From NCBI GenBank assembly GCA_037129555.1, contig JBAXUS010000005.1:7086-71085 (forward strand): 64,000 nucleotides of DNA. Direction: 5' to 3'. Source of the stretch: Planctomycetota bacterium (GTDB lineage Bacteria > Planctomycetota > SZUA-567 > H5-PLA8). Position numbers and translations under genes: made by a program. Of this stretch, positions 2,697 through 62,742 are shown in pieces. Within the stretch, counting starts at the first letter, position 1, and each line of letters opens with the position of its first letter. Under the pieces are notes generated by a model. That model was not told the origin of the DNA and did no database searches. It saw only the letters and a program-made list of their open reading frames with translations.

Positions 2697-3968
2697 CTAT
2701 TTCCTCAACAAAAATTCCAGCACCGCGATGATCAGCATCGTCGCACCGAAGATGCACGCCACGATCACGTACATGCGCAGGCGTTTGACTTCTTCGCGCA
2801 AGACTTCGATTTCGCTCTTCGCGCGCTCGACGTTTTTTTGCGCGTTGTTGATCGTGCGGATGATCGTCGATTTGCCTGCATCGAGCGGTTTGTTCGACGG
2901 GTTCTGACCGATCTTGACGAGCTCCATATCCTCGATCAACGCCGTCGCTTCGTTGAAACGGTCGCTCGGATTCTTCGCCATCATGCGTTCCAGAATCGTC
3001 ATCACCGAGTCAGGAATTTTGGGATTCATCGTGCGCGGGTCGGGCAACTCCGAGCGAATGTGCTGACGCATCACCGAACTGCCCGAGCCCTCGTACGGCG
3101 GCTTGCCGGTCAGCATGTGGTACAGCGAACAGCCCAGCGAGTATTGGTCCGAGCGCCAGTCGATATTATCGTTACCCATCGCCTGTTCAGGCGAAATGTA
3201 ATCGGGCGTGCCGAGCACTTCACCTTCAGTTGAAATCACCGGATCGAGCTTGGATTTGACGAAGCCGAAGTCGCCGAGCTTGACCTGTTTTTTGCGCGTC
3301 ATCATCATGTTGCCGGGCTTGATGTCGCGGTGAACGATGTCCCATTGCTTGATGTAATTGATCGCCTGCATGATCTGGATGACGATGTCCAGCGCGTCTG
3401 GAATGTCCAGCGGCCCGACGCGGTCGATCATGTCTTCGACGGTTTCACCATCAATGAATTCCATCGAAAAATAATACACGCCACGGTCACGACCGACGTC
3501 GTAGACCTGGATCAAATTCTGGTGGCTCAAGCGCCCGGCTAAACGCGCTTCAAGCAGAAAACGCTTTTTGAATTCTTCGTCGCCGAGCCACTTCTTATGG
3601 AGTACTTTCAGCGCCACGTCGCGCGACATGGAAATCTGCCGCGCCTTGTACACAGTCCCCAGCCCACCGTCACCGATTTTGCCGATGATTTCATAATTGC
3701 CGATGCGCAGCACATCGCCTTTTTCTTCGTCGCGTTGCAACCGCCCCAGCGCCGTTCGCACCGCGCGGATTTGGTCCTCGGTCATGTAGCCCTTGGACTG
3801 CAGAATCGTATCAATCGTTATGGCGGACTCGCCGTCGTCTGTGCTGCCGCTCGGCGAGGACTCGTGCGCCTGTGACAGCGCCGCCAGGCACTCCTGCACC
3901 TGCATCTCCGTGACCAGACCGTTTTCAACGGCCAATTCTTCGAACGTCGTCGCTCCCTTACGGGCCAT
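2697..3968 (-). CDS. Ser/Thr protein kinase with N-terminal MshEN-like repeats, coiled coil and C-terminal transmembrane tail anchor
   Basis: Hanks kinase motifs are present (GxGxxGxV: GDGGLGTVYKA; HRDIKPGN; DFG; SPE). Preferred start is MARKGATTF (AGAGG 11 nt upstream). The longer 4073 start adds a sequence translated from an ACACACAC tract and looks non-protein-like. C-terminal hydrophobic segment MYVIVACIFGATMLIIAVLEFLL. Confidence 0.75.
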   Translation of the reverse strand: MARKGATTFEELAVENGLVTEMQVQECLAALSQAHESSPSGSTDDGESAITIDTILQSKGYMTEDQIRAVRTALGRLQRDEEKGDVLRIGNYEIIGKIGDGGLGTVYKARQISMSRDVALKVLHKKWLGDEEFKKRFLLEARLAGRLSHQNLIQVYDVGRDRGVYYFSMEFIDGETVEDMIDRVGPLDIPDALDIVIQIMQAINYIKQWDIVHRDIKPGNMMMTRKKQVKLGDFGFVKSKLDPVISTEGEVLGTPDYISPEQAMGNDNIDWRSDQYSLGCSLYHMLTGKPPYEGSGSSVMRQHIRSELPDPRTMNPKIPDSVMTILERMMAKNPSDRFNEATALIEDMELVKIGQNPSNKPLDAGKSTIIRTINNAQKNVERAKSEIEVLREEVKRLRMYVIVACIFGATMLIIAVLEFLLRK

Positions 3969-4163
3969 TTCGTCGCTGCCTCTCGTGGACGTGTGTGTGT
4001 TAACCGCTGTGCATTTTAGCGCATTTTCGAAAACATCTATAGCAGAGAAAATCTTTGAGCGTGAAAGCCTCATTTCTTATCATCGTGCCTTTGTGTCTTG
4101 GCGTCTTTGTGTTAAAAATCTCGCATTCAAGACGTTCTGAAAAAACATGAGGAGAGTCAAGCT

Positions 4164-5033
4164 GTGCAATTGGACCCGACGTTGACCCGGATTGCGGTGC
4201 CGAGCAAAGGGCGGCTGCAAGAACCCAGCGAATCGTTGCTGCGAGCTGCTGGCATCAAATACCGCAAGCGCGACCGTTCGCTTTTTTCGAACGTGGACGG
4301 ACTGCGCGCCGCAATTCTATTCGTGCGCCCCGACGACATCCCTCTTTTGGTCGCCGAAGGCGCGGCGGACATGGGCTTGGTCGGTGAAGATTTGATCCAC
4401 GAAAACAATTGCGTCGGTCGTGTTGAGAAGAAGCTGGACCTCGCATACGGCCATTGCCGACTCGCTGTCGCCACGCGTGTTGATGGTGGAGCGAAGACCG
4501 TCGAAGCATTGCGCGGCCAGAAAATCGCCGCGTCGATGGCTGTCTCCGCGCGCGAATTTTTCAAGCAAAAGAACGTCGACGTCAATCTGCTCGAAGTCAC
4601 CGGCTCGGTTGAAATCATGGTCGCGCTTGGGCTGGCTGATGCGATCGTCGATCTCGTCGAATCCGGCGACACACTTCGCGACAATGGATTGGAAGTCATC
4701 GAAACCGTCGCGCAATCGCAAGCCGTTTTGATTCAAACACCGAAGCCGCGCGACGCACAACTCTGTGACTTGATCATCCGCCGATTGAAAGGCGTCTTGA
4801 CCGCGCAGCAATATTCGCTGCTCGAATACAACATCCACCGCGACAAACTCAAGCAGGCTGAAGCGCTCACGCCGGGTTACAATTCGCCGACGATCAGCAG
4901 TTGCGAAGATCCCGAATGGGTGGCGGTCAAAGTCATGGTGCCGAAGAAACAATCGATCATCATCATGGACGGCCTAGAAGCGCTCGGAGCGTCTGCGATT
5001 TTGGAGACGTTGATTTCGAATTGCAGGCTGTAA
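4164..5033 (+). CDS. hisG: ATP phosphoribosyltransferase, long form (HisG with C-terminal regulatory domain)
   Basis: 289 aa with typical HisG N-terminus (LTRIAVPSKGRLQEPSESLLRAAGI) and a C-terminal regulatory domain. GTG start preceded by GAGGAGA RBS. Confidence 0.85.
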   Translation: MQLDPTLTRIAVPSKGRLQEPSESLLRAAGIKYRKRDRSLFSNVDGLRAAILFVRPDDIPLLVAEGAADMGLVGEDLIHENNCVGRVEKKLDLAYGHCRLAVATRVDGGAKTVEALRGQKIAASMAVSAREFFKQKNVDVNLLEVTGSVEIMVALGLADAIVDLVESGDTLRDNGLEVIETVAQSQAVLIQTPKPRDAQLCDLIIRRLKGVLTAQQYSLLEYNIHRDKLKQAEALTPGYNSPTISSCEDPEWVAVKVMVPKKQSIIIMDGLEALGASAILETLISNCRL

Positions 5034-5067
5034 ACACAGTTCAACGTGTGACGTGAAAGCGATTCGT

Positions 5068-5113
5068 GCCTCGGATATGAATGATCGCATTCATATCCGA
5101 GGCCGTTTTTTTT
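5068..5113 (+). terminator. Rho-independent terminator downstream of hisG
   Basis: Perfect 16-bp stem GCCTCGGATATGAATG / CATTCATATCCGAGGC with 4-nt loop, followed by CGTTTTTTTT. Confidence 0.75.
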
Positions 5114-5210
5114 CGTGCATTCGAATTGATTCGCAGCACATCACGTTCATTTTTCCTCTAATATCGAGCAACTCAGCGCGGGTAAATACACACGTTGCGC
5201 TCGCAGGCGC

Positions 5211-6767
5211 ATGCAAGGTTTCAAGAGTTCACACGTTCGATTGGAAACAGAGACCATGAGTTCTTCCGACCCCATCGCAGCACGTCCCCAGATGACCGTA
5301 ACCGGTGAAGCCACCGCGATTCTTCCGGCTCGCAACAACGCCGGGAAACCGATTACCGTGATTGGAACCCAGACCATTCGTGACGGTTTCGATGCGCGGT
5401 GTTTGGAGCAGGCGTTGAATTCGCGCGGGGCTCCGGGCGTGACGGATTTGGTTTTGAATCCGGACGCTCACGTCGGATACGGTGCGCCGATCGGATGCGT
5501 GTTGGTATCGCCGACGCACATTTACCCCGGGCCGGTGGGCGTGGATATCAAGTGCAGCATGAGTTTGTTGCAGCTTGATTTGCCTGCCGATGCGGTGAAA
5601 GACCGGACCACTCGCCGCGCGTTGATCGATGCGATTTTGGAACGGACTCCGACCGGGCCGGGGCAGGGGCAGCGTTCTGCAAAAAAGTGCCGGCAGGTGG
5701 ACGAGGCGGTGGGGCGTCGTGCGATGACCACTGGCGCGTCCGCTGACGTCTGCAACGCGCTGGGAATTCCGACGGAGTGGGCAGACATGTGCGAAGATTC
5801 GTGCCACGTCGCTCACGATGGAACGGCGGATTCGTTGGAACTGCGTCTCGATCAGATTTTGCAGACGCCATTGATCCGCAATTTCAACGACAAGGTCCAG
5901 CAGCTCGGATCGTATGGCGGAGGGAATCACTTCGGCGAATGTGAAGTCGTGACGATCGAGGATAACGCCCGCGCTCGGACGGCGGCGGATGTCTTCGGTA
6001 TGCGCGACAATTGCGTCGCGTTCCTGTCGCACTGCGGATCGCGCGGCTTCGGAAATCTTCTCGCGCAGGGACAGTTCCGCGCGTTGCAGGCGATGTTTGA
6101 ACGCTGGAGCATTCCGTTGCCGGGAGGCGACCGCGAGTTGGTGTATGCGCCGCTTGGAACGGCTGAAGCGGATTGCTATATCGACGACCTGTCGTTGGGA
6201 TCGAACTTCGCGACGGTGAATCACATGCTGATCAACGCGCTGGTGCTCGAAGCGTTTCAGTCCGTGATTCCCGGGACGAAGGGGCAGCTGGTTTATTTTA
6301 TCAGCCACAACATCGCGCGGCAGGAGATCGTCAATAATCAAAAGTGCTGGGTGCATCGGAAGGGAGCGACGCGCGCGTTCCCGGCGGGACATCATTCATT
6401 GAAGGGAACGCGTTACGAAACGACCGGTCATCCGATTTTACTTCCTGGAAATCCGACGGCGGGAAGTGTAGTCATGGTGGCCGATCCCGGCGCGGAGAAG
6501 AGTTGCTACAGCGTCAATCACGGTGCAGGCCGGTGCAAAGGACGTAAGGCTGCGATCCGCGAACTCGATCAGAAGACCGTGGACAAAGAAATGCTTGACC
6601 ACGATATTCTGAGCAACTGCCGCCAGTATCCGAAGGACGAAGCTCCGGCCGCGTACAAGGATTTCGACGAAGTCTTGAAGTCCGTCACGTCGGCAGGATT
6701 GGCCAGCCCCGTTGCGCGGTTGAAGGCGCGGTTTGTGATCAAGGACAGTTCGGGCGCTGATGATTAG
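5211..6767 (+). CDS. rtcB: RNA-splicing ligase RtcB
   Basis: RtcB family motifs (…GGNHFGECEV…, …SVNHGAGRCKGR…). The true start may be the ATG at 5256 (MSSSDPIAARP). No rtcA/rtcR/archease is adjacent. Confidence 0.8.
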   Translation: MQGFKSSHVRLETETMSSSDPIAARPQMTVTGEATAILPARNNAGKPITVIGTQTIRDGFDARCLEQALNSRGAPGVTDLVLNPDAHVGYGAPIGCVLVSPTHIYPGPVGVDIKCSMSLLQLDLPADAVKDRTTRRALIDAILERTPTGPGQGQRSAKKCRQVDEAVGRRAMTTGASADVCNALGIPTEWADMCEDSCHVAHDGTADSLELRLDQILQTPLIRNFNDKVQQLGSYGGGNHFGECEVVTIEDNARARTAADVFGMRDNCVAFLSHCGSRGFGNLLAQGQFRALQAMFERWSIPLPGGDRELVYAPLGTAEADCYIDDLSLGSNFATVNHMLINALVLEAFQSVIPGTKGQLVYFISHNIARQEIVNNQKCWVHRKGATRAFPAGHHSLKGTRYETTGHPILLPGNPTAGSVVMVADPGAEKSCYSVNHGAGRCKGRKAAIRELDQKTVDKEMLDHDILSNCRQYPKDEAPAAYKDFDEVLKSVTSAGLASPVARLKARFVIKDSSGADD

Positions 6768-40131: not shown

Positions 40132-40312
40132 TTCGATACCTTGGTTGGTCTGAGAATTTAAAATGATTCGGCGTGTAAATCCGCGCGCAAATTTTATGTC
40201 GCCCTTTCAGGGCTTGGATTTCTATGGGCGACGGACCTAGGGCTGCGCGAGTACGCTTAGCCCTAGGCTATATCATGCCGCCCCATTCGGGGCTGAAAAA
40301 TCGGGGCTGAAA

Positions 40313-48976: not shown

Positions 48977-49630
48977 ATGTCGAATGGCAAAGCGGTGTCG
49001 AATGAGACGGTGATTCAGCAGTTGAAGTGGCGTTACGCGACGAAGAAATTTGACGCGACGAAGCGCATTTCGGATGCGGATTGGAAGACACTTGAAGAGG
49101 TGCTGGTGTTGACTCCGTCGTCATTCGGATTGCAGCCGTGGAAGTTTTTTGTTGTCGTTACGCCAGCATTGAAAGAGAAGTTGGTTCCAGTATCGTGGGG
49201 ACAAATGCAGGTGAAAGAAGCGTCCCACACGCTGGTCATGGCGATCAAGAAGAATATGAATGCGGCGGACATCACGCGGTATGTTGAGCACACGGCGCAG
49301 GTGCGAAGCGTGCCGGTGGAGTCGCTCGAAAAGTTCAAGCAGGTGATGGTGAATTTCGCGACTCGTCCGGGCTTTGATGTGAATGCGTGGGCGAAGGATC
49401 AGGTGTACATTGCGCTCGGAAATTTCATGACGGCAGCGGCGATGCTGGGAATTGATACGTGTCCGATGGAAGGGATAGATCCGAAAAAGTACGATGAAAT
49501 TCTAGGACTCGAAGCGCTGGGATTTGCGACTGTTGTGGCGTGTCCGGCGGGGTATCGGTCCAGTGAAGACAAATACGCGGCGACTCCGAAAGTGCGGTTC
49601 GATCACGACGACGTCATTGGGCATTTATAA
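48977..49630 (+). CDS. NAD(P)H nitroreductase family protein
   Basis: Classic nitroreductase N-terminus (…RYATKKFDATKRISDADWKTLEEVLVLTPSSFGLQPWKFFVV…). Confidence 0.75.
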   Translation: MSNGKAVSNETVIQQLKWRYATKKFDATKRISDADWKTLEEVLVLTPSSFGLQPWKFFVVVTPALKEKLVPVSWGQMQVKEASHTLVMAIKKNMNAADITRYVEHTAQVRSVPVESLEKFKQVMVNFATRPGFDVNAWAKDQVYIALGNFMTAAAMLGIDTCPMEGIDPKKYDEILGLEALGFATVVACPAGYRSSEDKYAATPKVRFDHDDVIGHL

Positions 49631-49653
49631 ACGCGAATGGATCAAACGCACTT

Positions 49654-49732
49654 CACCCCTCACCTCGCGAGACGGAACGGCTGTCTCGTCGGTCCTCTCC
49701 CTCAAGGGGAGAGGGCAACAGCAACGGCTAGT
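49654..49732 (+). repeat. Structured ~90-nt repeat, copy 1 (most diverged)
   Basis: cacCCCTCACCtCGCGAGACGGAACGgCTGTCTCGTCGGtCCTCTCCCTCAAGGGGAGAGGGcaacagcaacggct. Stem 1 is CGAGAC/GTCTCG; stem 2 is CCTCTCCC-tcaa-GGGGAGAGG. Confidence 0.7.
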
Positions 49733-49826
49733 CCAAACCTGCTGCGAATTGTGAAGATCGTGTTGTGAGATTTGAGTCCGCTTGTATAGTCGAATTCTCT
49801 TGATTCGACATTTCGATAGACATTGG

Positions 49827-56230: not shown

Positions 56231-56330
56231 GATTAATCAGCGCCACCCCTCACCCCGCGAGCCGAACGGCTGGCTCGTCGGCCCTCTCCCTCAAGGGGAG
56301 AGGGGAAGGGCTACGGCTCGCTTTGCTCGC
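56231..56330 (+). repeat. Structured ~100-nt repeat, copy 2
   Basis: GATTAATCAGCGccACCCCTCACCCCGCGAGCCGAACGGCTGGCTCGTCGGCCCTCTCCCTCAAGGGGAGAGGGGAAGGGCtaCGGCTCGCTTtGCTCGC. It lies between the SurA-like gene start and the 3' end of the large minus-strand gene. Confidence 0.75.
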
Positions 56331-56337
56331 GTGAGAA

Positions 56338-59300
56338 TTACGCGTTGCGCGAGATGGGGTCGGCGCCCATGGTGCCGATGAGTTCGGTGAGGTGCTCTTT
56401 TGAGAGGACGTGGGCAAGCGTGGATTCGGCGCGTTGCAGGCGGTCTTTGATTTTCAGGCGCGCGATGGGTTCGGCGTGGCCGGGCTTCGCGAGGAAGGCT
56501 TTGATGTAGGAGATTGTGTCGGTCAAGTGCGCGGCGTCGCGGGACTGTTTGATTTTCAAACGCTCGTGATACCACTCGCTGGCGAGCAGGTAGTCTTTGG
56601 TGAACATGGCGCGGACGTCGGGGTGCGACGCGGTTTTGCCCTGCCATTCTCCGTGCGCCATAATGGCGATGATGGCTTGGAGCGGCGGGCATGCGTCGTC
56701 AATTGTTTCGTCTTCGACGTATTGCAACGCGACGCGTTTTTGAGCCTCGACAATGTTCTCGATGCCATCGACGAAGACGGCGAGGTTTTGCGTTTCGGGT
56801 TTCATCATGGCTTCGTCGAACACGGCAACCGGATTGTCGAAGACGCGTCCGAAGTAAACGTGGACGAAGCGGGTCGTGATGCGGTAGCCGAGGCGGCTTG
56901 CTGGGATGGTGCGGCCCTCGTAGTCGAAGTCATTCATCTTTTCGAAGAAGCCGTTTTCGATCATCTCCTGAATGTTGCGTTCGTCCGGGCGCAAGCGGCA
57001 CCAGATTTCCGGGATGAGGAGGCTGACGTCGTGGCCGACGGGGACGTTGGGACCGACGCAACCGGCGGCGGTCGTGAGGCCGTCGTGGCCGGTGAGGATG
57101 AAGGAGACGAGCGCGTTGTTGAGATCGGCTGTCGTTGGGAGCGCGTTGAAGGGGCCTTTGGTGAGCGCGCCTTCGGAACCTGCTCCGGTTGTCGACGGCG
57201 ATTTTCCGGTCAGGCTGCAAATGAAATCCATGAACAGCTCGGGCAGTTCCTGATAGTGGATCGGGTTGTAAACGGCGAGCGGGCGGATGCCGGCTTTGAG
57301 GTCAGGCGGATTGTTGCGACGACCGGCGAGGACGGCGTTGACAGGGAAAATGACTGGTGCATCGGCGGACAGACGGCGGTGCAAACGGGCACCGACTTCG
57401 GCGAGGTATTCGGTGATCGGATGGACGAGCGTCGGGCGGACTTGGAGGTAGCGCGGATTTTGCGTGGGCTTGCCGTCAACCAAACGCGGATGCGCGGACG
57501 AGACGAAGAATGTACCGTCGGCTTCGGTCGCGGCTTTGCGGATGAGCGCGCGCATGGGATCGGTGAATTGGCTGAAGTGGATGGAATCGTCGATGAGTTC
57601 GAGGGCTTCGTTGCGCGGCAGCGGTTGGAAATTGGAGATAAAATTGCCGGGCAGACTCATATCGAGTTCAGCTTGTTTATCGTAGCCGCGATGGATGGCG
57701 TCGTCGGGGCGCTGGAAGAAACGGTACTCGCAATTGTTGGTCAGTTTCAGCGAATGTGCATCCGCTGATTTGTAATACGAATCAACCCATGACGGCGGGA
57801 CGACGACGGATGCGGTGATGTCGTCTTCCATTTGGACTTTTTCAGCGGGAATAAAATCCTGGCGGAGCTTGTGTGTGCGCCAGGAACCGTCCTGCGTTTT
57901 TCCGACGCGGAGGTAGCTGCCGACGAGGCTGCGGCCGTTGAATTTCAATTCGTGTCCGGAGCTGCCGTTGACGTTGTCGACGCTGAAATGCGAGCGCCAA
58001 TCGTCGCCCCATTCCGGGCGGTGGAAGCGCTTGATGATGTAGACGAGTGCGAAAATGTGGTTCGGGATGGTCGCGAGCCACGCGTTGTATTCGGGCGTGT
58101 ATTCAATGACGGATGGCGTGAGCAATTTGATGACGGAGCCGAGCGAGCGCTGGGGGCTGAGGATCGGACGGGAGGTGTGCTCGTCGGTGAAGCGCCGGTA
58201 TTTGGGAAGGAAGCGGCCGCTGTAATTGCGCGTGATGATGGCGTCCACGTCGTCGAAATCTTTTTGTGCATCGGCAACGAAAACCGGGCCGTAGAGGACG
58301 GCATCGGTGATCGATTTGGAGAGTTCAGATTTGCCGCCGCCGGAGACAGTGCAGGGCTTGTGGCAGAAGGTCGGTTCGGCTTCGGTCCCGACGAGACGCC
58401 ACGATGGCGCGCCGGGATGTTTTTCGAGTTGGACTTTGTAACCCGACGGCATGATGTAGACGTTGCCGTTGAGGACTTTGACGCTCTGTTCTTTGCCGTC
58501 TTTTTGCCAGGACGCTTTTTGTGTAGCGAGGTCGAGGCGGACATCTTCGGGGACGTAGACGATGGTCGGGTATCTTTTATCGACGCCGTAGCCTTCGGGT
58601 TTGAAGTCGATGAAGTTGGAATAGAGGCGCTTCATTTCGACGAAGGAATGTCCTTCCATGTGCATGCGCCGGGCTGGGCGCGTGGCGTCGAGATCGTCGC
58701 CGTAATTGTAGCGCGGGAAGGCGAGGGCGCCGCCTGCGTGTTCTTCTTCGCAGAGACCGAAGAAATTCGCAGCCATGCTGATCTGGGTCTTCACTTCTTT
58801 TTTGCAGTAGCCGAAATAATTGTCGGCGATGATTGTGACCATGATGCCGTCCATCGAGCGGCAGACGAGCTTGAAGGCGCTGCCGCCGTTGTAGCACTCG
58901 TTGGCATCGCGCCAGCACATGCCGTCGGCGCGCTGGCGTTCGGTGGCGTCCTTCCAATTGGGGAGGCCCATGTCTTTCTTGCGAACGAAGACGAGGTGCG
59001 GCGCGAGAATCACGCAGCCGGTGTGGCCGGTCCAATGATCGACGTCGAGGCCGGCATCGTTTTCGGGTAGGTAGGGATCGCCTGCGTTGCCGAAGATGGA
59101 TTCAACGAAATCGAGGTTGGCGACGAGACTTCCCGGGGCGAAGAAGCGGACTTCCATCGTTTTTCGCTGCAATTTTCCGGGCACTTCGGGACAGACGATG
59201 GGGCGAAGGAGGAGCGAGACCATGATCTCGGCTTCATCGGTTGAGCTCATGGTGTACGGCAGTTTTAATAATTCTTTCGGCGGGTTCAATGCGGCGTTGA

Positions 59301-59823
59301 GCATGTTGCCGTAGACGCGTTTGGGGACGGCGATTTTGTCGGCGGGAACGGGGAGGCCGCCTTCGGCGATGTGGAAGACGCCTTTGGTGGTGCGCTTGTC
59401 ATTTTTCGGATTGTGAAGGACGCCTTGTTCGACGCGATACGAGCTACCGATTTCGGTTTCGAGGGTATTTTTATTGAGCGGAAGTGAGAGTTCGCGCGCG
59501 AGGCCGTGGCGGTCGAGCGTCAGGGTGTTGCGCGGAAGTTCGATGGGGCCATTGAGTTTGACGTCGGCGAAATGAGACGCGAGAAAATCCTGGATGCGGC
59601 GATCAGGTGGACAGAGATGGGACGAAAGCAGGCGGACTTTTTCGCGATAATTTTGGACGAGGTCATAGGCCATGTCCAAGAGTTCGGAGTCTTCATTCGC
59701 GCCGGGGGCTTTGAGGCCGAGGGCGGCGAGTTTCAGATTGATGTAGCGGACGATCAGGAGTCGTTCTTTTTCGGCCTCAACACCTTTTAATGGAGGGAAA
59801 CCCAGTGCTCGTTTTAAACCCAT
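56338..59823 (-). CDS. Very large soluble protein, tentatively PPi-dependent phosphoenolpyruvate carboxykinase (PEPCK3 family)
   Basis: Single 1161-aa ORF with no TM segment, no repeats, and none of the standard motifs of GTP/ATP-PEPCK, PEP carboxylase or PPDK. Size (~130 kDa) and overall character fit the PPi-PEPCK family described in Entamoeba, Propionibacterium and some PVC bacteria. The assignment is from memory of that family, not from a motif match. Confidence 0.4.
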   Translation of the reverse strand: MGLKRALGFPPLKGVEAEKERLLIVRYINLKLAALGLKAPGANEDSELLDMAYDLVQNYREKVRLLSSHLCPPDRRIQDFLASHFADVKLNGPIELPRNTLTLDRHGLARELSLPLNKNTLETEIGSSYRVEQGVLHNPKNDKRTTKGVFHIAEGGLPVPADKIAVPKRVYGNMLNAALNPPKELLKLPYTMSSTDEAEIMVSLLLRPIVCPEVPGKLQRKTMEVRFFAPGSLVANLDFVESIFGNAGDPYLPENDAGLDVDHWTGHTGCVILAPHLVFVRKKDMGLPNWKDATERQRADGMCWRDANECYNGGSAFKLVCRSMDGIMVTIIADNYFGYCKKEVKTQISMAANFFGLCEEEHAGGALAFPRYNYGDDLDATRPARRMHMEGHSFVEMKRLYSNFIDFKPEGYGVDKRYPTIVYVPEDVRLDLATQKASWQKDGKEQSVKVLNGNVYIMPSGYKVQLEKHPGAPSWRLVGTEAEPTFCHKPCTVSGGGKSELSKSITDAVLYGPVFVADAQKDFDDVDAIITRNYSGRFLPKYRRFTDEHTSRPILSPQRSLGSVIKLLTPSVIEYTPEYNAWLATIPNHIFALVYIIKRFHRPEWGDDWRSHFSVDNVNGSSGHELKFNGRSLVGSYLRVGKTQDGSWRTHKLRQDFIPAEKVQMEDDITASVVVPPSWVDSYYKSADAHSLKLTNNCEYRFFQRPDDAIHRGYDKQAELDMSLPGNFISNFQPLPRNEALELIDDSIHFSQFTDPMRALIRKAATEADGTFFVSSAHPRLVDGKPTQNPRYLQVRPTLVHPITEYLAEVGARLHRRLSADAPVIFPVNAVLAGRRNNPPDLKAGIRPLAVYNPIHYQELPELFMDFICSLTGKSPSTTGAGSEGALTKGPFNALPTTADLNNALVSFILTGHDGLTTAAGCVGPNVPVGHDVSLLIPEIWCRLRPDERNIQEMIENGFFEKMNDFDYEGRTIPASRLGYRITTRFVHVYFGRVFDNPVAVFDEAMMKPETQNLAVFVDGIENIVEAQKRVALQYVEDETIDDACPPLQAIIAIMAHGEWQGKTASHPDVRAMFTKDYLLASEWYHERLKIKQSRDAAHLTDTISYIKAFLAKPGHAEPIARLKIKDRLQRAESTLAHVLSKEHLTELIGTMGADPISRNA

Positions 59824-60916: not shown

Positions 60917-62185
60917 TTGACGTGCGCGCGGAATTGGGGACGATGTTTTCATATGCTTCACAGTGTCTTAACGAGTGCTGAAAAAACGCTGGGGTGCGTG
61001 CTGCGCGTGGACGGCGACATCGGGTTGCTTGAGCGGCCGCGCCGTGCGTTGCTGGTGTCGCGCGGGGAGCGGAATCCTGCGCCGGACGAGGCACGACTTT
61101 GCGCGGTGATTGATGCGGCGCGGAGTGTGGTGAGCTCGGGTGAGGCGCTGGTTGTTGGGACGGAGCGCGAGCATTGGGATGTGGCGTTGTGGACGTGTCG
61201 GGAGGCAGGCGGTGCTGCGATTGTGGTGTTGCATGAGCGCTCGGAGGCGGCGGAGTTTTTTCCGGAGAACGTGTTGTTGGTGTGGCCGGCGATGAGTGAG
61301 CCGGCGTTGAGTAAAGAGGAGCGGCTGTTGTTGCGCGATCAGCTTGTTGGGATGCTGGCGTCGTGTGCGACTGCGATTCAAATTCGGGCGAATGGGAATA
61401 TGGCGCGGGTGGCGGCGGATATGAGTGCGCGGGGATGTGGGGTTGAGGCTTGGGCGATTAAGAAGAGTGAACGGACGACTCGAAAACTGGATAGCGGTTT
61501 AGAGTTGGGGAGCGCCACCCCCTCACCCCGCGAGCCGAACGGCAGGCTCGTCGGCCCTCTCCCCGAGGGGAGAGGGGAAGGGCGGCGACTCGCTTCGCTC
61601 GTTGGATCTGAATTTGAGAAAATGGGTGACGCCTATTTGACTCATTTTACGCGCGAGCCGGATGGGTGTTGGCCGGGCGAGAGTCGGGGTGATTATGTGC
61701 GGTGGTTGGCTTCGGGAATTCGATTTGATCAGCGCGATGGGTTTCAGGCGCTGCGGCGGATTTTGAGTCAACGCAGGATTGTGTCGTGTGGGCGGCTTAT
61801 TAATGGTGGGACGCCGGTGGTGTGTTTGACGGCGCGTGATCCGGGTGAGTTGCTGGTTGAAAATCGGTGGCGAAAAGGGTTGGGGCGTTGGACGTATTCG
61901 CGATATGCGCTGTCGATTCGGCGGGATGTTTTGGAGGCGGCGGGTGCGCGAGTGGTGCGGTATGTTTCAGCGGACGTGATGCAGCTGGCTCCGATTTCTG
62001 AGCGTCATTTTTTGCAGATTGAAGCGTCGAGCGGAATCGATTGGCGGAATGAAGCGGAGTGGCGTGTGACGGGCGATTTGGATTTTTCGCGATTGGATTC
62101 TGGGGCGACGGTGGCGTGGGTTTCGAGCGAAACTGAAGCGGCGAGCATCGAGAGTGAGTTTGGAATTCGTGCGTTTTTGTTGTGA
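60917..62185 (+). CDS. Hypothetical protein: N-terminal divergent Rossmann-like domain (weak DprA/LOG/SLOG-superfamily resemblance) + C-terminal unknown domain, joined in-frame through a copy of the structured repeat
   Basis: One open frame of 422 codons. Both halves have coding-like periodicity. Residues ~200-232 (GSATPSPREPNGRLVGPLPEGRGEGRRLASLVG) are translated from repeat copy 3 (61511-61601). This may be one protein with an in-frame repeat insertion or two genes (second start MGDAYL at ~61622). Confidence 0.4.
   Translation: MTCARNWGRCFHMLHSVLTSAEKTLGCVLRVDGDIGLLERPRRALLVSRGERNPAPDEARLCAVIDAARSVVSSGEALVVGTEREHWDVALWTCREAGGAAIVVLHERSEAAEFFPENVLLVWPAMSEPALSKEERLLLRDQLVGMLASCATAIQIRANGNMARVAADMSARGCGVEAWAIKKSERTTRKLDSGLELGSATPSPREPNGRLVGPLPEGRGEGRRLASLVGSEFEKMGDAYLTHFTREPDGCWPGESRGDYVRWLASGIRFDQRDGFQALRRILSQRRIVSCGRLINGGTPVVCLTARDPGELLVENRWRKGLGRWTYSRYALSIRRDVLEAAGARVVRYVSADVMQLAPISERHFLQIEASSGIDWRNEAEWRVTGDLDFSRLDSGATVAWVSSETEAASIESEFGIRAFLL
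61511..61601 (+). repeat. Structured repeat, copy 3 (in-frame inside ORF 60917-62185)
   Basis: gcgccACCCCcTCACCCCGCGAGCCGAACGGCaGGCTCGTCGGCCCTCTCCCcgAGGGGAGAGGGGAAGGGCGgCGaCTCGCTTCGCTCG. The loop of stem 2 is changed (cga vs tcaa) without breaking the stem. Confidence 0.75.
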
Positions 62186-62640: not shown

Positions 62641-62742
62641 GATTAATCAGCGTTTACCCCTCACCCCGCGAGACGGAACGACTGTCTCGTCGGCCCTCTC
62701 CCTCAAGGGGAGAGGGGAAGGGCGACGGCTCGCTTCGCTCGC
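62641..62742 (+). repeat. Structured ~100-nt repeat, copy 4
   Basis: GATTAATCAGCGtttACCCCTCACCCCGCGAGaCGGAACGaCTGtCTCGTCGGCCCTCTCCCTCAAGGGGAGAGGGGAAGGGCGACGGCTCGCTTCGCTCGC. Stem 1 carries the compensatory pair (CGAGAC/GTCTCG). Confidence 0.75.

Follow-up and report, generated by a model that had tools for sequence, protein, structure and literature searches.

E. coli has been known since the 1990s to carry BoxC, PIT and TM motifs, which form very stable triplexes in vitro. To our knowledge, no function, in vivo structure or means of spread has been established for them. Besides E. coli, they occur in further Proteobacteria (Hoyne and Maher 2000; Holder et al. 2015, PMC4666352), and the TM_ECO form is defined by a C-rich 9-nt stem (CCCTCNCCC) joined through a 3-6 nt loop to a first G-rich stem (GGGNGAGGG), a second loop of 3 nt (TTA in type A, CCG in type B), plus another stem rich in G (GGGNGAGGG) that could serve as the third strand. 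Type B reads CCCTCTCCC-loop-GGGAGAGGG-CCG-GGGTGAGGG. The E. coli triplex forms in isolated single strands and has gone undetected in vivo. PIT elements in E. coli have neither promoter nor terminator activity, purine-motif triplexes do not form in RNA, and no transposase is known for BoxC. The same E. coli motif has also been interpreted as a G-quadruplex-hairpin-duplex switch (Doluca et al., bioRxiv 10.1101/032615).

The repeats described here lie in a 64,000-nt stretch of a Planctomycetota contig (the window) and, with a probability of about 80%, are a Planctomycetota variant of these BoxC/PIT/TM_ECO dispersed repeats, acting at the DNA level and constrained in structure. A preliminary description could match them to no family; their conserved 'unpaired' 5' segment corresponds to the third-strand box of a BoxC-type motif. 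Read on the minus strand, the unit is CCCCTCTCCCC-TTGA-GGGAGAGGG-CCG-(hairpin)-GGGGTGAGGGG. The three 9-nt boxes CCCTCTCCC, GGGAGAGGG and GGGTGAGGG are identical in E. coli TM_ECO and in the Planctomycetota unit, which has the C-rich stem, short first loop and first G-rich stem of the definition as well as the second G-rich stem. Loop 1, TTGA, is that of motif no. 2 of MG1655; copies 2 and 4 read CCCTCTCCC-(C)TTGA-GGGAGAGGG on the minus strand, and the loop of copy 3 is CTCG. In copies 2-4, GGGGTGAGGGG gives nine of nine allowed triplets (G*G-C, A*A-T, T*A-T) in the E. coli register, while copy 1 has GAGGTGAGGGG, in which the first G of the third-strand box is changed. The two systems differ in loop 2, which opens with CCG as in type B but, instead of stopping at 3 nt, takes up a covarying hairpin of 22-27 nt (stem 1), so that in full it consists of CCG, A, a hairpin of 6-9 bp closed by a loop of 4-9 nt, and C, or 25-30 nt. 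Since the ITxF search permits loops of 1-6 nt, it would miss the Planctomycetota variant, and motif finders limited to short loops undercount the family.

Of 5426 E. coli genomes, 4408 contain intergenic sites that match the part of the unit made up of stem 2 and CCG; one of these sites proved, on full reading, to be a BoxC doublet. TM_ECO occurs as singlets and as inverted doublets of two flavours (type A+B pairs) with the third-strand boxes inward, and the Planctomycetota unit appears to do likewise. Head-to-head doublets of two flavours are found at at least 10 related loci, none of them in the window. Both TM_ECO and the unit are variably present among relatives, and both appear to be mostly intergenic and unrelated to the orientation or function of neighbouring genes. 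TM_ECO was described from 262 proteobacterial genomes, whereas the present variant is found in Planctomycetota and in many soil and freshwater metagenome contigs, which widens the range of the family from Proteobacteria to Planctomycetota and many environmental contigs. Compared with TM_ECO, the variant carries a GATTAATC box and a CTCGCTTCGCTCG tail as lineage-specific extra modules.

On the plus strand the unit, about 90-100 nt long with its tail, runs from the C-box (CCCCTCACCCC) through stem 1 to stem 2 (CCCTCTCCC/GGGAGAGGG). The four plus-strand copies first reported in the window are the only ones there, an nhmmer profile search giving exactly four matches (E 1e-11 to 4e-14); the stem-2 pattern has three matches in the window where 0.01 are expected, and the C-box pattern four true matches where 0.17 are expected. 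Copy 1 (49629-49732) is the most decayed, with a degenerate 5' box (GATCAAAC), a C-box at 49656-49666 (CCCCTCACCTC), stem 1 from 49666 to 49691, stem 2 from 49692 to 49716 and a tail of diverged sequence. Copy 2 (56231-56330) has GATTAATC at 56231-56238, the C-box at 56246-56256, stem 1 at 56255-56281 (CCGCGAGCC...GGCTCG-T-CGG), stem 2 at 56282-56304, a purine run up to 56310 and a tail up to 56330. In copy 3 (61511-61601), the C-box (61518-61529) is followed by stem 1 (61528-61554), stem 2 with the loop CGAG (61555-61576) and a tail up to 61601. Copy 4 (62641-62742) has GATTAATC at 62641-62648, the C-box at 62657-62667, stem 1 in its GAGAC/GTCTC form at 62666-62693, stem 2 at 62694-62716 and a tail up to 62742. 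A fifth copy lies on the plus strand of the same contig at about 65659-65719, 1.7 kb beyond the end of the window.

The C-box and both stems are common to the four window copies, as had been described, but GATTAATC, which had been listed among the shared parts, is found in copies 2 and 4 only (GATCAAAC in copy 1 and AGTTGGGG in copy 3 take its place), and copy 1 ends in a 3' tail that has diverged. In 19 copies, GATTAATC starts at a fixed offset of 16-18 nt before the C-box; in other lineages TTGCAA or CTTGCAAG occupies this position, and many copies besides 1 and 3 are without the GATTAATC box. The C-box itself keeps a fixed distance in all of 22 copies, 18 of which have it exactly, and the bases just 5' to it vary; since the pattern used to scan genomes excluded the C-box, its presence in all 22 does not come from the way in which copies were selected. 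An nhmmer profile was used in place of a covariance model, since MAFFT puts the 3' arm of stem 2 out of register where copies have loops of unequal length. A MITE is defined by terminal inverted repeats and a target-site duplication; here the 5' end (the GATTAATC box) and the 3' tail (CTCGCTTCGCTCG) do not form an inverted pair. That the tail might pair with the 5' arm of stem 1 was considered and rejected, for this pairing, perfect in copy 2, does not covary in copy 4.

All five copies on the contig are on the plus strand and their flanking genes run in both directions, in agreement with the first view that orientation is independent of neighbouring genes. The plus strand of the window has a GC skew of +0.133 (0.150 over plus-strand genes and 0.125 over minus-strand genes) and more T than A. 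In the comparison across loci, positive skew falls on the C-box strand for 34 singletons and on the other strand for 11 (p=0.0008); at loci with |skew|>=0.04 the counts are 16 and 1. GC skew can only stand in for the direction of replication here, and the loci are for the most part short. On the positive-skew strand the element is itself C-rich. This skew-linked orientation distinguishes the Planctomycetota variant from TM_ECO; counted from the published Table 1, the G-rich strand of E. coli singlets is leading in eight and lagging in five, a lack of clear replichore bias that speaks against the reading offered here. Orientation that is linked to skew and independent of transcription points to replication and single-stranded DNA.

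Copy 3 lies within a gene, while TM_ECO has been described as always intergenic. The host gene (60953-62185, plus strand; WCT04_01755) encodes a 410-aa two-domain hypothetical protein and is a single gene in both the ENA and the NCBI calls. The copy forms an in-frame insertion of about 32 codons in the interdomain linker and has no stop in any plus-strand frame. Homologs of the host protein (375-420 aa) align over their full length without the ~32-aa PSPREPNGRLVGPLPEGRGEGRRLASLVGSEF, and the segment is missing from all nine of the closest. Copy 3, a gene insertion that is in frame and can be dated, shows that the unit has moved. GTTGG can be seen by eye on both sides of copy 3, but the spacing of 97 nt misfits an in-frame insert; no consistent target-site duplication was found, the other copies being without a clear one. 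Besides this one confirmed intragenic copy, there is one possible case in another locus (L012). Rickettsia palindromic elements are likewise palindromic repeats, reportedly inserted in frame into protein-coding genes, where they add a peptide in a tolerant region, although their sequences and hosts are unrelated to those of the Planctomycetota unit. Intergenic sites vary as well. At sites orthologous to that upstream of the ATP-grasp gene next to copy 1, one locus (L146) has a different stem-1 subtype and two (L144 and L145) have no element; in two genomes with different upstream genes, the element stands roughly 113-118 nt upstream of where the ATP-grasp gene starts. At the PPIase site of copy 2, three orthologous loci have no element, and as the upstream gene differs there, these are not clean empty sites.

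The REP/MITE-like character proposed in the preliminary description is retained here in the sense of a dispersed structured repeat. Like REP, BIME and REPIN sequences, the Planctomycetota unit is a short, G+C-rich, multicopy palindrome that forms head-to-head dimers, often heterodimers, and lies mostly after coding regions and at times within them. The unit could in principle be a REP/REPIN-type miniature transposon whose stem 1 is recognised by RAYT or another HUH/Y1 enzyme and which is mobilised through single-stranded DNA, a possible origin that we consider improbable. Head-to-head doublets, site-specific presence and absence and insertion in coding sequence all suit such an element, the replication-strand bias is as expected for targeting of the lagging-strand template, and stem 1 terminates in CGTC, the tag of one REP super-family. 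However, the copies are without the GTAG tag, and the rules for CGTC REPs (an 8-9 bp stem starting with A-T, a 4-5 nt loop and a CCA tail) do not describe them, for stem 1 ends in ...CTCGTCGG with CGTC largely paired, is all G-C at its base, has loops of 4-9 nt and lacks a CCA tail. The same 9-nt boxes extend from E. coli to Planctomycetota, whereas REPs are typically species-specific, and unlike REPs the unit combines two hairpins with a conserved unpaired box. The lack of a known BoxC transposase also speaks against a REP origin. CGTC REPs are likewise without a dedicated transposase (Di Nocera et al. 2013, PMC3733652). A tblastn search with E. coli RayT over 0.93 Mb of element-centred loci gave one weak match (L078, 1825-2469), which was discarded as mobiliser since this ORF is flanked by its own GTAG-tagged REPs and not by the BoxC-type element; no mobilising enzyme was found in these loci.

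The pairing of stem 1 is conserved while its sequence is not. Copies 2 and 3 have CGAGCC/GGCTCG and copies 1 and 4 CGAGAC/GTCTCG, the paired C:G to A:T change noted at the outset; stem 2 is unbroken in all four, with the loop TCAA(G) or CGA(G), and in copy 1 one mismatch lies just outside the box. The covariation not only holds but grows when more copies are aligned. Over nine pairs in 28 distinct cores from other genomes and metagenomes, 95.2% of the cells are paired against 79.2% in shuffles, a level reached by none of 500 shuffles; cells with double changes number 31 against 6.8 in shuffles of the same cores, and slid controls pair at 26-50%. There are roughly a dozen versions of stem 1 across the family, with a conserved bulged T. 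Of 75 distinct loop-2 inserts taken from the family at large, 42 fold as end-closing hairpins, against 23 +/- 4 when shuffled. DNA folds computed with Watson-Crick pairs only give, on both strands, two adjoining hairpins and a free box (z -2.1 to -4.5).

The first description took such covariation as a sign of selection. That pairing is maintained stands, and with it the fold; it is no proof of selection, because templated quasipalindrome correction could also yield covariation. Template-switch products in quasipalindrome mutagenesis typically have perfect arms, and the stem variants form discrete subfamilies that coexist within one genome, which would suit an origin by intrastrand template switching that re-perfects the hairpins, with a fold that need not matter to the cell. 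This purely mutational origin seems unlikely, since it leaves the invariant unpaired C-box, the conserved bulged T and the strand bias unexplained, and it would still need hairpin formation in vivo.

As a BoxC-type DNA element, the single-stranded unit would fold into two abutting hairpins and leave the 10-11 nt third-strand box free right at the base of the homopurine-homopyrimidine hairpin, where it may lie back into the hairpin groove as an antiparallel purine-motif triplex. Stem 1 would be a closed linker that holds the third-strand box beside the purine-pyrimidine hairpin, which would account for a pairing that is conserved in a sequence that is not; the covariation of this linker argues that placing the box beside the duplex matters. 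Should CCG and CGG pair at the base of stem 1, two of the G's needed for the first triplets would be taken up, which speaks against the triplex. Alternatively, the G-rich strand might form a G-quadruplex with the hairpin as a long loop; its four G-tracts (GGG-AGA-GGG ... GGGG-TGA-GGGG) and competing C-rich hairpin arm are like those of the G-quadruplex-hairpin-duplex switch (bioRxiv 10.1101/032615), although the central loop here is about 27 nt and is itself a hairpin, while the search of Doluca et al. permitted loops of 1-7 nt. We infer a fold of one of these two kinds, triplex or quadruplex.

The element has been gained or lost at single sites, and once gained in frame in a gene. Its orientation is set by local GC skew, read as replication strand; on this reading the G-rich, triplex-capable strand is the leading-strand template. 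The bias may come from selection that disfavours a stable fold where the lagging-strand template is single-stranded, or else from insertion directed to single strands. The element probably has no cellular function except persistence and local genome plasticity. A broader and quite tentative proposal, improbable on balance, is that BoxC/PIT-type motifs constitute an old, cross-phylum, replication-oriented family that is moved or copied through single-stranded DNA and whose fold, a hairpin-closed triplex or quadruplex, is propagated or selected. If true, linker covariation, strand bias and a fresh in-frame insertion would together be the first comparative evidence that the BoxC-type fold matters in vivo, and some enzyme or repair pathway that spreads such elements would be implied.

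The gene context of the copies bears on whether they act as RNA. The genes around the four intergenic copies on the contig are arranged as ++, --, +- and --, and four of the five copies are 8-24 nt from stop codons. Copy 1 lies 24 nt past the stop of a nitroreductase gene, and a promoter-like site of the ATP-grasp gene follows it at a distance of about 48 nt. Copy 2 is between two minus-strand genes, upstream of the PPIase gene, and 8 nt separate the end of its tail from the stop (56338) of a 1161-aa PEPCK_PPi-like gene. Copy 4 fills the 131-nt spacer of two convergent genes, NUDIX (stop 62630) and FIST (stop 62762). Over 81 copies, greedy longest-ORF calls, which are crude, place the elements evenly among ++, --, +- and -+ arrangements; 29 of the 81 were called as lying within ORFs, and these calls were set aside as mostly over-extension of start codons (Pfam, L074 and L016). 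The closeness to stop codons, the stable hairpins, a G-U wobble or bulged U that is possible on the plus strand, and palindromes of the form CCCTCTCCC..GGGAGAGGG in Enterobacter sp. 638 that are presumed terminators in the literature would fit two hairpins acting as a 3'-end stabiliser, terminator or small structured RNA. Such an RNA-level role, a small RNA or operon-3'-end element having been suggested initially, is very unlikely. Transcription would read the copies in both senses (sense for 1 and 3, antisense for 2 and 5, with 4 lying between convergent genes), copy 3 is in coding sequence, and orientation tracks GC skew and not genes; the inactivity of E. coli PIT elements as promoters or terminators and the inability of purine-motif triplexes to form in RNA weigh in the same direction. 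None of 28 terminator-like sites between 49000 and 64000 overlaps a copy, and neither strand has a T-run. Rfam at the gathering threshold gives only Acido-Lenti-1 in the window, away from the copies, and at E<=10 no match on the copies between 49000 and 64000.

An operator or insulator upstream of promoters, bound by a protein through the GATTAATC palindrome and the G/C boxes, might account for the fixed offset of GATTAATC to the C-box and for the distance kept to the ATP-grasp start in two genomes, but is the least probable of these readings, given copy 4 between convergent genes, copy 3 in coding sequence, the many copies lacking GATTAATC, the inconstant distance to promoters and flanking genes that share no functional theme. 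Integron attC sites were dismissed, as the copies have housekeeping genes of ordinary kind and normal size for neighbours and no attC-type core sites, and so was an association with phages, just eight viral contigs matching against metagenome contigs that are at least as many as those listed.

Intragenic copies such as copy 3 add about 30 Pro/Gly/Arg-rich residues to annotated proteins. As a separate observation, copies coincide with contig breaks.

The four window copies of the repeat, all on the + strand, are confirmed by reading the sequence at 49629–49732 (copy 1), 56231–56330 (copy 2), 61511–61601 (copy 3) and 62641–62742 (copy 4). Based on their alignment, they follow a common order. An optional 5′ box (GATTAATC) and an invariant C-rich box (C-box, CCCCTCACCCC) come first, followed by the hairpin of stem 1, a CGG linker, the purine-pyrimidine hairpin of stem 2 (CCCTCTCCC-loop-GGGAGAGGG), a purine run and a 3′ tail. 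The preliminary description assigned this layout to every copy, which is correct for the C-box and the two stems, while the 5′ box is intact only in copies 2 and 4. The stem 2 pattern has three matches in the window versus 0.01 expected and the C-box pattern has four true matches versus 0.17 expected, so the four-copy pattern did not arise by chance. A profile of the core finds exactly four places in the 64 kb, the same four, with E-values of 1e-11 to 4e-14. The paired difference in stem 1, GAGCC/GGCTC versus GAGAC/GTCTC, is as first described. The tail ends in CTCGCTTCGCTCG(C), seen at 56311–56330, 61582–61601 and 62723–62742.

The element is a hairpin-in-loop-2 variant, in a Planctomycetota MAG, of the BoxC/PIT/TM_ECO intrastrand-triplex repeat of E. 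coli. A full-text search with the stem 2 arms led to this family, whose G/C-rich intrastrand triplex motif, TM_ECO, was once called BoxC and later PIT; its formula is 5′-CCCTCNCCC N3-6 GGGNGAGGG N3 GGGNGAGGG-3′, with a second loop of TTA in type A and CCG in type B (Holder et al. 2015, PMC4666352). The reverse complement of copy 2 reads CCCCTCTCCCC-TTGA-GGGAGAGGG-CCG-A-[CGAGCC AGCCGTTC GGCTCG]-C-GGGGTGAGGGG. Its three boxes are the E. coli boxes, its loop 1, TTGA, is that of MG1655 motif no. 2, and its loop 2 starts with the CCG of type B; the repeat, left unmatched in the first description, is not an unknown family. The sole architectural difference is the placement of stem 1 within loop 2, and since the length of this loop fails the published definition at this one point, the element is classed as a variant and not as a member. 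The ITxF search behind TM_ECO, which found the motif in 262 proteobacterial genomes, allowed loops of 1–6 nt only (Holder et al. 2015, PMC4666352), so that the hairpin-in-loop-2 variant would have escaped it. Among 5,426 complete E. coli genomes searched by blastn with the minus-strand core, 4,408 match the part comprising stem 2 and CCG, never at an annotated feature; the single E. coli site inspected in full, in the ygfF-gcvP spacer, holds a BoxC doublet. Short-loop units of the canonical kind, together with tandem arrays, make up 28 of 141 among the metagenome matches listed. The original structural argument from hairpins and paired changes is sound, and the most likely reading of the element is a dispersed repeat at the DNA level, constrained by its structure and linked to replication.

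A scan of the genome collection, in which only the stem 1–stem 2 junction and stem 2 were fixed, gives 18 further copies in three Planctomycetota MAGs. The C-box was no part of that pattern, so its recurrence at a constant spacing in each of the 22 copies (18 exact, four with one substitution) is unselected; the three bases preceding it vary freely. A metagenome scan that fixed the C-box and the 5′ arm of stem 2, and nothing else, matched at least 120 stretches. Stem 1 varies widely among copies and subfamilies (GCGAGCC/GGCTCGT, GCGAGACGG/CTGTCTCGT, GCGAGCG/CGCTCGT, GCGAGCGC/GCGCTCGT, GCGGGCG/CGCCCGT, GCGCATG/CATGCGT, GCGAAGG/CCTTCGT, GCGCAGG/CCTGCGT and GCGGCGG/CCGCCGT). For 28 distinct cores, RNAalifold predicts a helix of nine pairs, CCGCGAGnn/nnCTCG-T-CGG, in which a bulged T is conserved. 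Standard pairs fill 95.2% of the cells of this helix, versus 79.2% after shuffling, and both sides are changed in 31 cells versus 6.8 (0 of 500 shuffles reach either value); when the 3′ partner is slid by 1–3 columns as a control, pairing falls to 26–50%. The covariation claimed from four copies thus holds and is much stronger with the 28 cores, which shows that the pairing of stem 1 is maintained. Its attribution to selection is another matter, as covariation alone does not separate selection from hairpin-templated correction.

Under DNA folding parameters, each of the four copies forms, on either strand, two hairpins that abut with no spacer between them (z-scores of −2.1 to −4.5), and the 10–11 nt of the C-box (+), or of the G-box, which is the same box read on the − strand, are single-stranded at the junction. 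Since the hairpins abut and the box is free, the G-strand box begins at the base of the purine-pyrimidine hairpin. In the computed fold it adjoins the purine arm at its 3′ end; in the E. coli motif the third strand turns back from there and runs antiparallel to that arm. Such a triplex, with its T·A-T and A·A-T triplets, predicts the "mismatch" seen between CCCTCACCC and CCCTCTCCC. Stem 1 would be a closed linker that holds the third strand beside the duplex, which would explain a conserved pairing without a conserved sequence. In the wider family, 42 of 75 distinct loop-2 inserts fold as end-closing hairpins, versus 23.0 ± 4.0 in shuffles (maximum 33 across 200 shuffles), with a mean energy of −8.7 versus −5.9 ± 0.24 kcal/mol. 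The G-rich strand might alternatively form a G-quadruplex with the hairpin as a long central loop; for the short-loop E. coli motif, such a fold has already been suggested (Doluca et al., bioRxiv 10.1101/032615). Neither the triplex nor the quadruplex is established for this strand, both being beyond proof by computation, and the E. coli triplex was seen in isolated strands, not in vivo (Holder et al. 2015, PMC4666352).

The motif CTCGCTTCGCTC has two roles: in the window copies it is the 3′ tail, and in other subfamilies it forms the loop of the loop-2 hairpins, a double use that suggests module shuffling, as in mosaic (BIME-like) elements. Among the element-centred loci from other genomes and metagenomes (L-numbers), CTCGCTTCGCTCG(C) is the hairpin loop within loop-2 inserts of L056, L074, L020, L042 and others.

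All five copies on the 76,305-bp contig, including copy 5 (~65659–65719, about 1.7 kb past the window end), lie on the + strand. The + strand of the window has a GC skew of +0.133, with T>A, and since the skew is positive in + genes (0.150) and − genes (0.125) alike, it is of the replication type and not a coding-strand skew; the + strand is most likely the leading strand. Among all loci of at least 3 kb, with elements masked and doublets left out, the C-box strand has positive skew for 34 singletons and negative skew for 11 (binomial p = 0.0008). The counts are 27 and 10 with one element per locus (binomial p = 0.008), and 16 and 1 when the absolute skew is also at least 0.04 (p = 0.0003). 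Because the element is C-rich on its C-box strand (skew −0.06 to −0.12) and so opposes the positive skew, composition does not explain the bias. Orientation does not follow the neighbouring genes, as was first proposed: counted roughly, the flanking arrangements are about evenly spread (++ 9, −− 12, +− 10, −+ 11), and transcription meets copies in both senses. With skew as a proxy for replication direction and most loci short, the strand that is G-rich and capable of a triplex or quadruplex tends to be the template of the leading strand. Its partner, the C-box strand, is then the lagging-strand template, the one exposed as single-stranded DNA. Both selection against a very stable G-strand fold on the lagging-strand template and orientation-specific insertion into single-stranded DNA fit this bias. 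E. coli singlets have no clear bias (8 versus 5 in our own count from the table of Holder et al. and the known oriC and terminus positions), so it may be specific to the Planctomycetota, hairpin-in-loop-2 variant. Along the window, the + strand skew climbs steadily, starting near 0.00 over the first 8 kb and reaching 0.26 over the last 8 kb. The four window copies and the one shortly past its end are confined to the final 16 kb of the contig stretch, and none occurs in some 15 intergenic spacers of 100 nt or more within the first 49 kb of the window.

Copy 3 lies inside a single 410-aa gene in both the ENA and NCBI calls (WCT04_01755). A phmmer search of its protein against 1.84 billion representatives gives 1,482 relatives, including proteins of 375–420 aa aligned full-length in one stretch; on the basis of the single-gene annotation and these homologs, the ORF is real. 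A segment of ~32 residues, PSPREPNGRLVGPLPEGRGEGRRLASLVGSEF, is found only in the window protein when compared with its nine closest homologs (47–56% identity); it coincides with copy 3 and sits in a variable linker between two conserved domains. This confinement is direct evidence that a unit of about 90–100 nt, tail included, was inserted here. Copy 3 has no stop codon in any + frame; it carries the 3′ tail and lacks the GATTAATC box, which would bring TAA into one frame. TM_ECO, in contrast, is described as always intergenic. In L012, a copy at 4598–4655 lies in the middle of a 1,145-codon ORF (2879–6316, +), preceded by a WecG glycosyltransferase domain and followed by TPR repeats, and is possibly a second in-frame intragenic insertion.

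At the ATP-grasp ortholog of L146 (82% identity), an element occupies the same place in the same orientation, ~113 nt before the start, with a different stem 1 (GCGCAGG-AGTA-CCTGCGT) and a different upstream gene. L144/L145 (86% ATP-grasp ortholog) have no such element; an unrelated repeat is at the site and the contigs end just upstream. Three relatives have PPIase orthologs with another gene upstream and no element. Presence, subtype and neighbourhood thus change between close relatives, and local variability is also reported around the E. coli motifs (Holder et al. 2015, PMC4666352). The other repeat family, which reads GCGCTACCCTGGG...CCCAGGGTAGCGC plus AAAACGCCTTCGGCGTAT hairpins, lies upstream of both PPIase and ATP-grasp in a relative (86% and 79% protein identity; L141 4600–4950, L145 1–200), and two independent contigs break at it. 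About 50 nt upstream of the ATP-grasp start, GGTATAGTCG, with a −10-like TATAGT, is present in three genomes with or without the element (L146 3960–3975; window 49780–49790; L144 45–55).

The window has singlets only; at least ten related loci have head-to-head doublets, a minus then a plus copy 25–45 nt apart with the C/G-boxes inward. Their halves have two flavours, ...CCCC-GCGAG..CTCGTC-GG-CCC... and ...CCC-GGCGAG..CTCGTC-CG-CCC..., which mirror the E. coli rule that type A is always with type B (Holder et al. 2015, PMC4666352). In the window lineage and the JBBRQD MAG, the GATTAATC palindrome precedes the C-box on its 5′ side at a constant distance (19 occurrences; window 56231–56238 and 62641–62648); doublets contain it twice, with the centres 18 nt apart, and other lineages have TTGCAA or CTTGCAAG in its place. 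Related loci with a palindrome 5′ of the C-box include L013 (4700–4790), L106 (8030–8075) and the L105 and L072 spacers. The palindrome resembles a junction signal or a site bound by a dimeric protein.

Only eight viral contigs match the family pattern. A tblastn search with E. coli RayT of 0.93 Mb of element-centred DNA gives one weak match, with HUH and Tyr motifs (L078 1825–2469); a RAYT link is rejected, as this ORF is flanked by its own GTAG-tagged REPs and not by the element described here. The classic REP pair preceding it is GTAGGGGTGGGC-ctccgt-GCCCACCCC and its inverse (region L078 1800–2470), and the ORF is ~770 nt from a TM-type element ending with the pairing GGGTGAGGG. Stem 1 ends in CGTC, as in the CGTC-tagged REPs, a super-family that also lacks a transposase; the element departs from the stem, loop and tail rules of that family and is not assigned to it (Di Nocera et al. 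2013, PMC3733652).

A small structured RNA, one of the identities first proposed, is an unlikely reading. Gene calls from Pfam and the public assembly place copy 1 (+) 24 nt past a nitroreductase stop (+) and ~48 nt before the promoter-like TTGTGA-16-TATAGT of the ATP-grasp gene (+). Copy 2 lies between two − genes, upstream of PPIase, with 8 nt between its tail and the stop codon of a 1161-aa PEPCK_PPi-like gene; copy 4 takes up the 131 nt that separate the convergent NUDIX (+) and FIST (−) genes, and copy 5 lies ~10 nt after the stop of a − strand ABC gene. Transcription thus crosses the + strand element in both senses, which argues against a strand-specific RNA role; no hairpin-plus-T-run site overlaps any copy, and the Rfam search gives no match on any of them. 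Neither promoter nor terminator activity was seen for E. coli PIT elements (Holder et al. 2015, PMC4666352). The 1161-aa protein (56338–59823, −), for which the Pfam scan is empty and the public record has PF26300 (PEPCK_PPi_lobe_2), is probably a PPi-dependent PEP carboxykinase-like enzyme. The sole Rfam match at gathering score in the window is an Acido-Lenti-1 RNA at 40236–40294 (+; 40.1 bits, E 1.3e-05), where 322 nt separate accA from a minus-strand gene of 622 aa.
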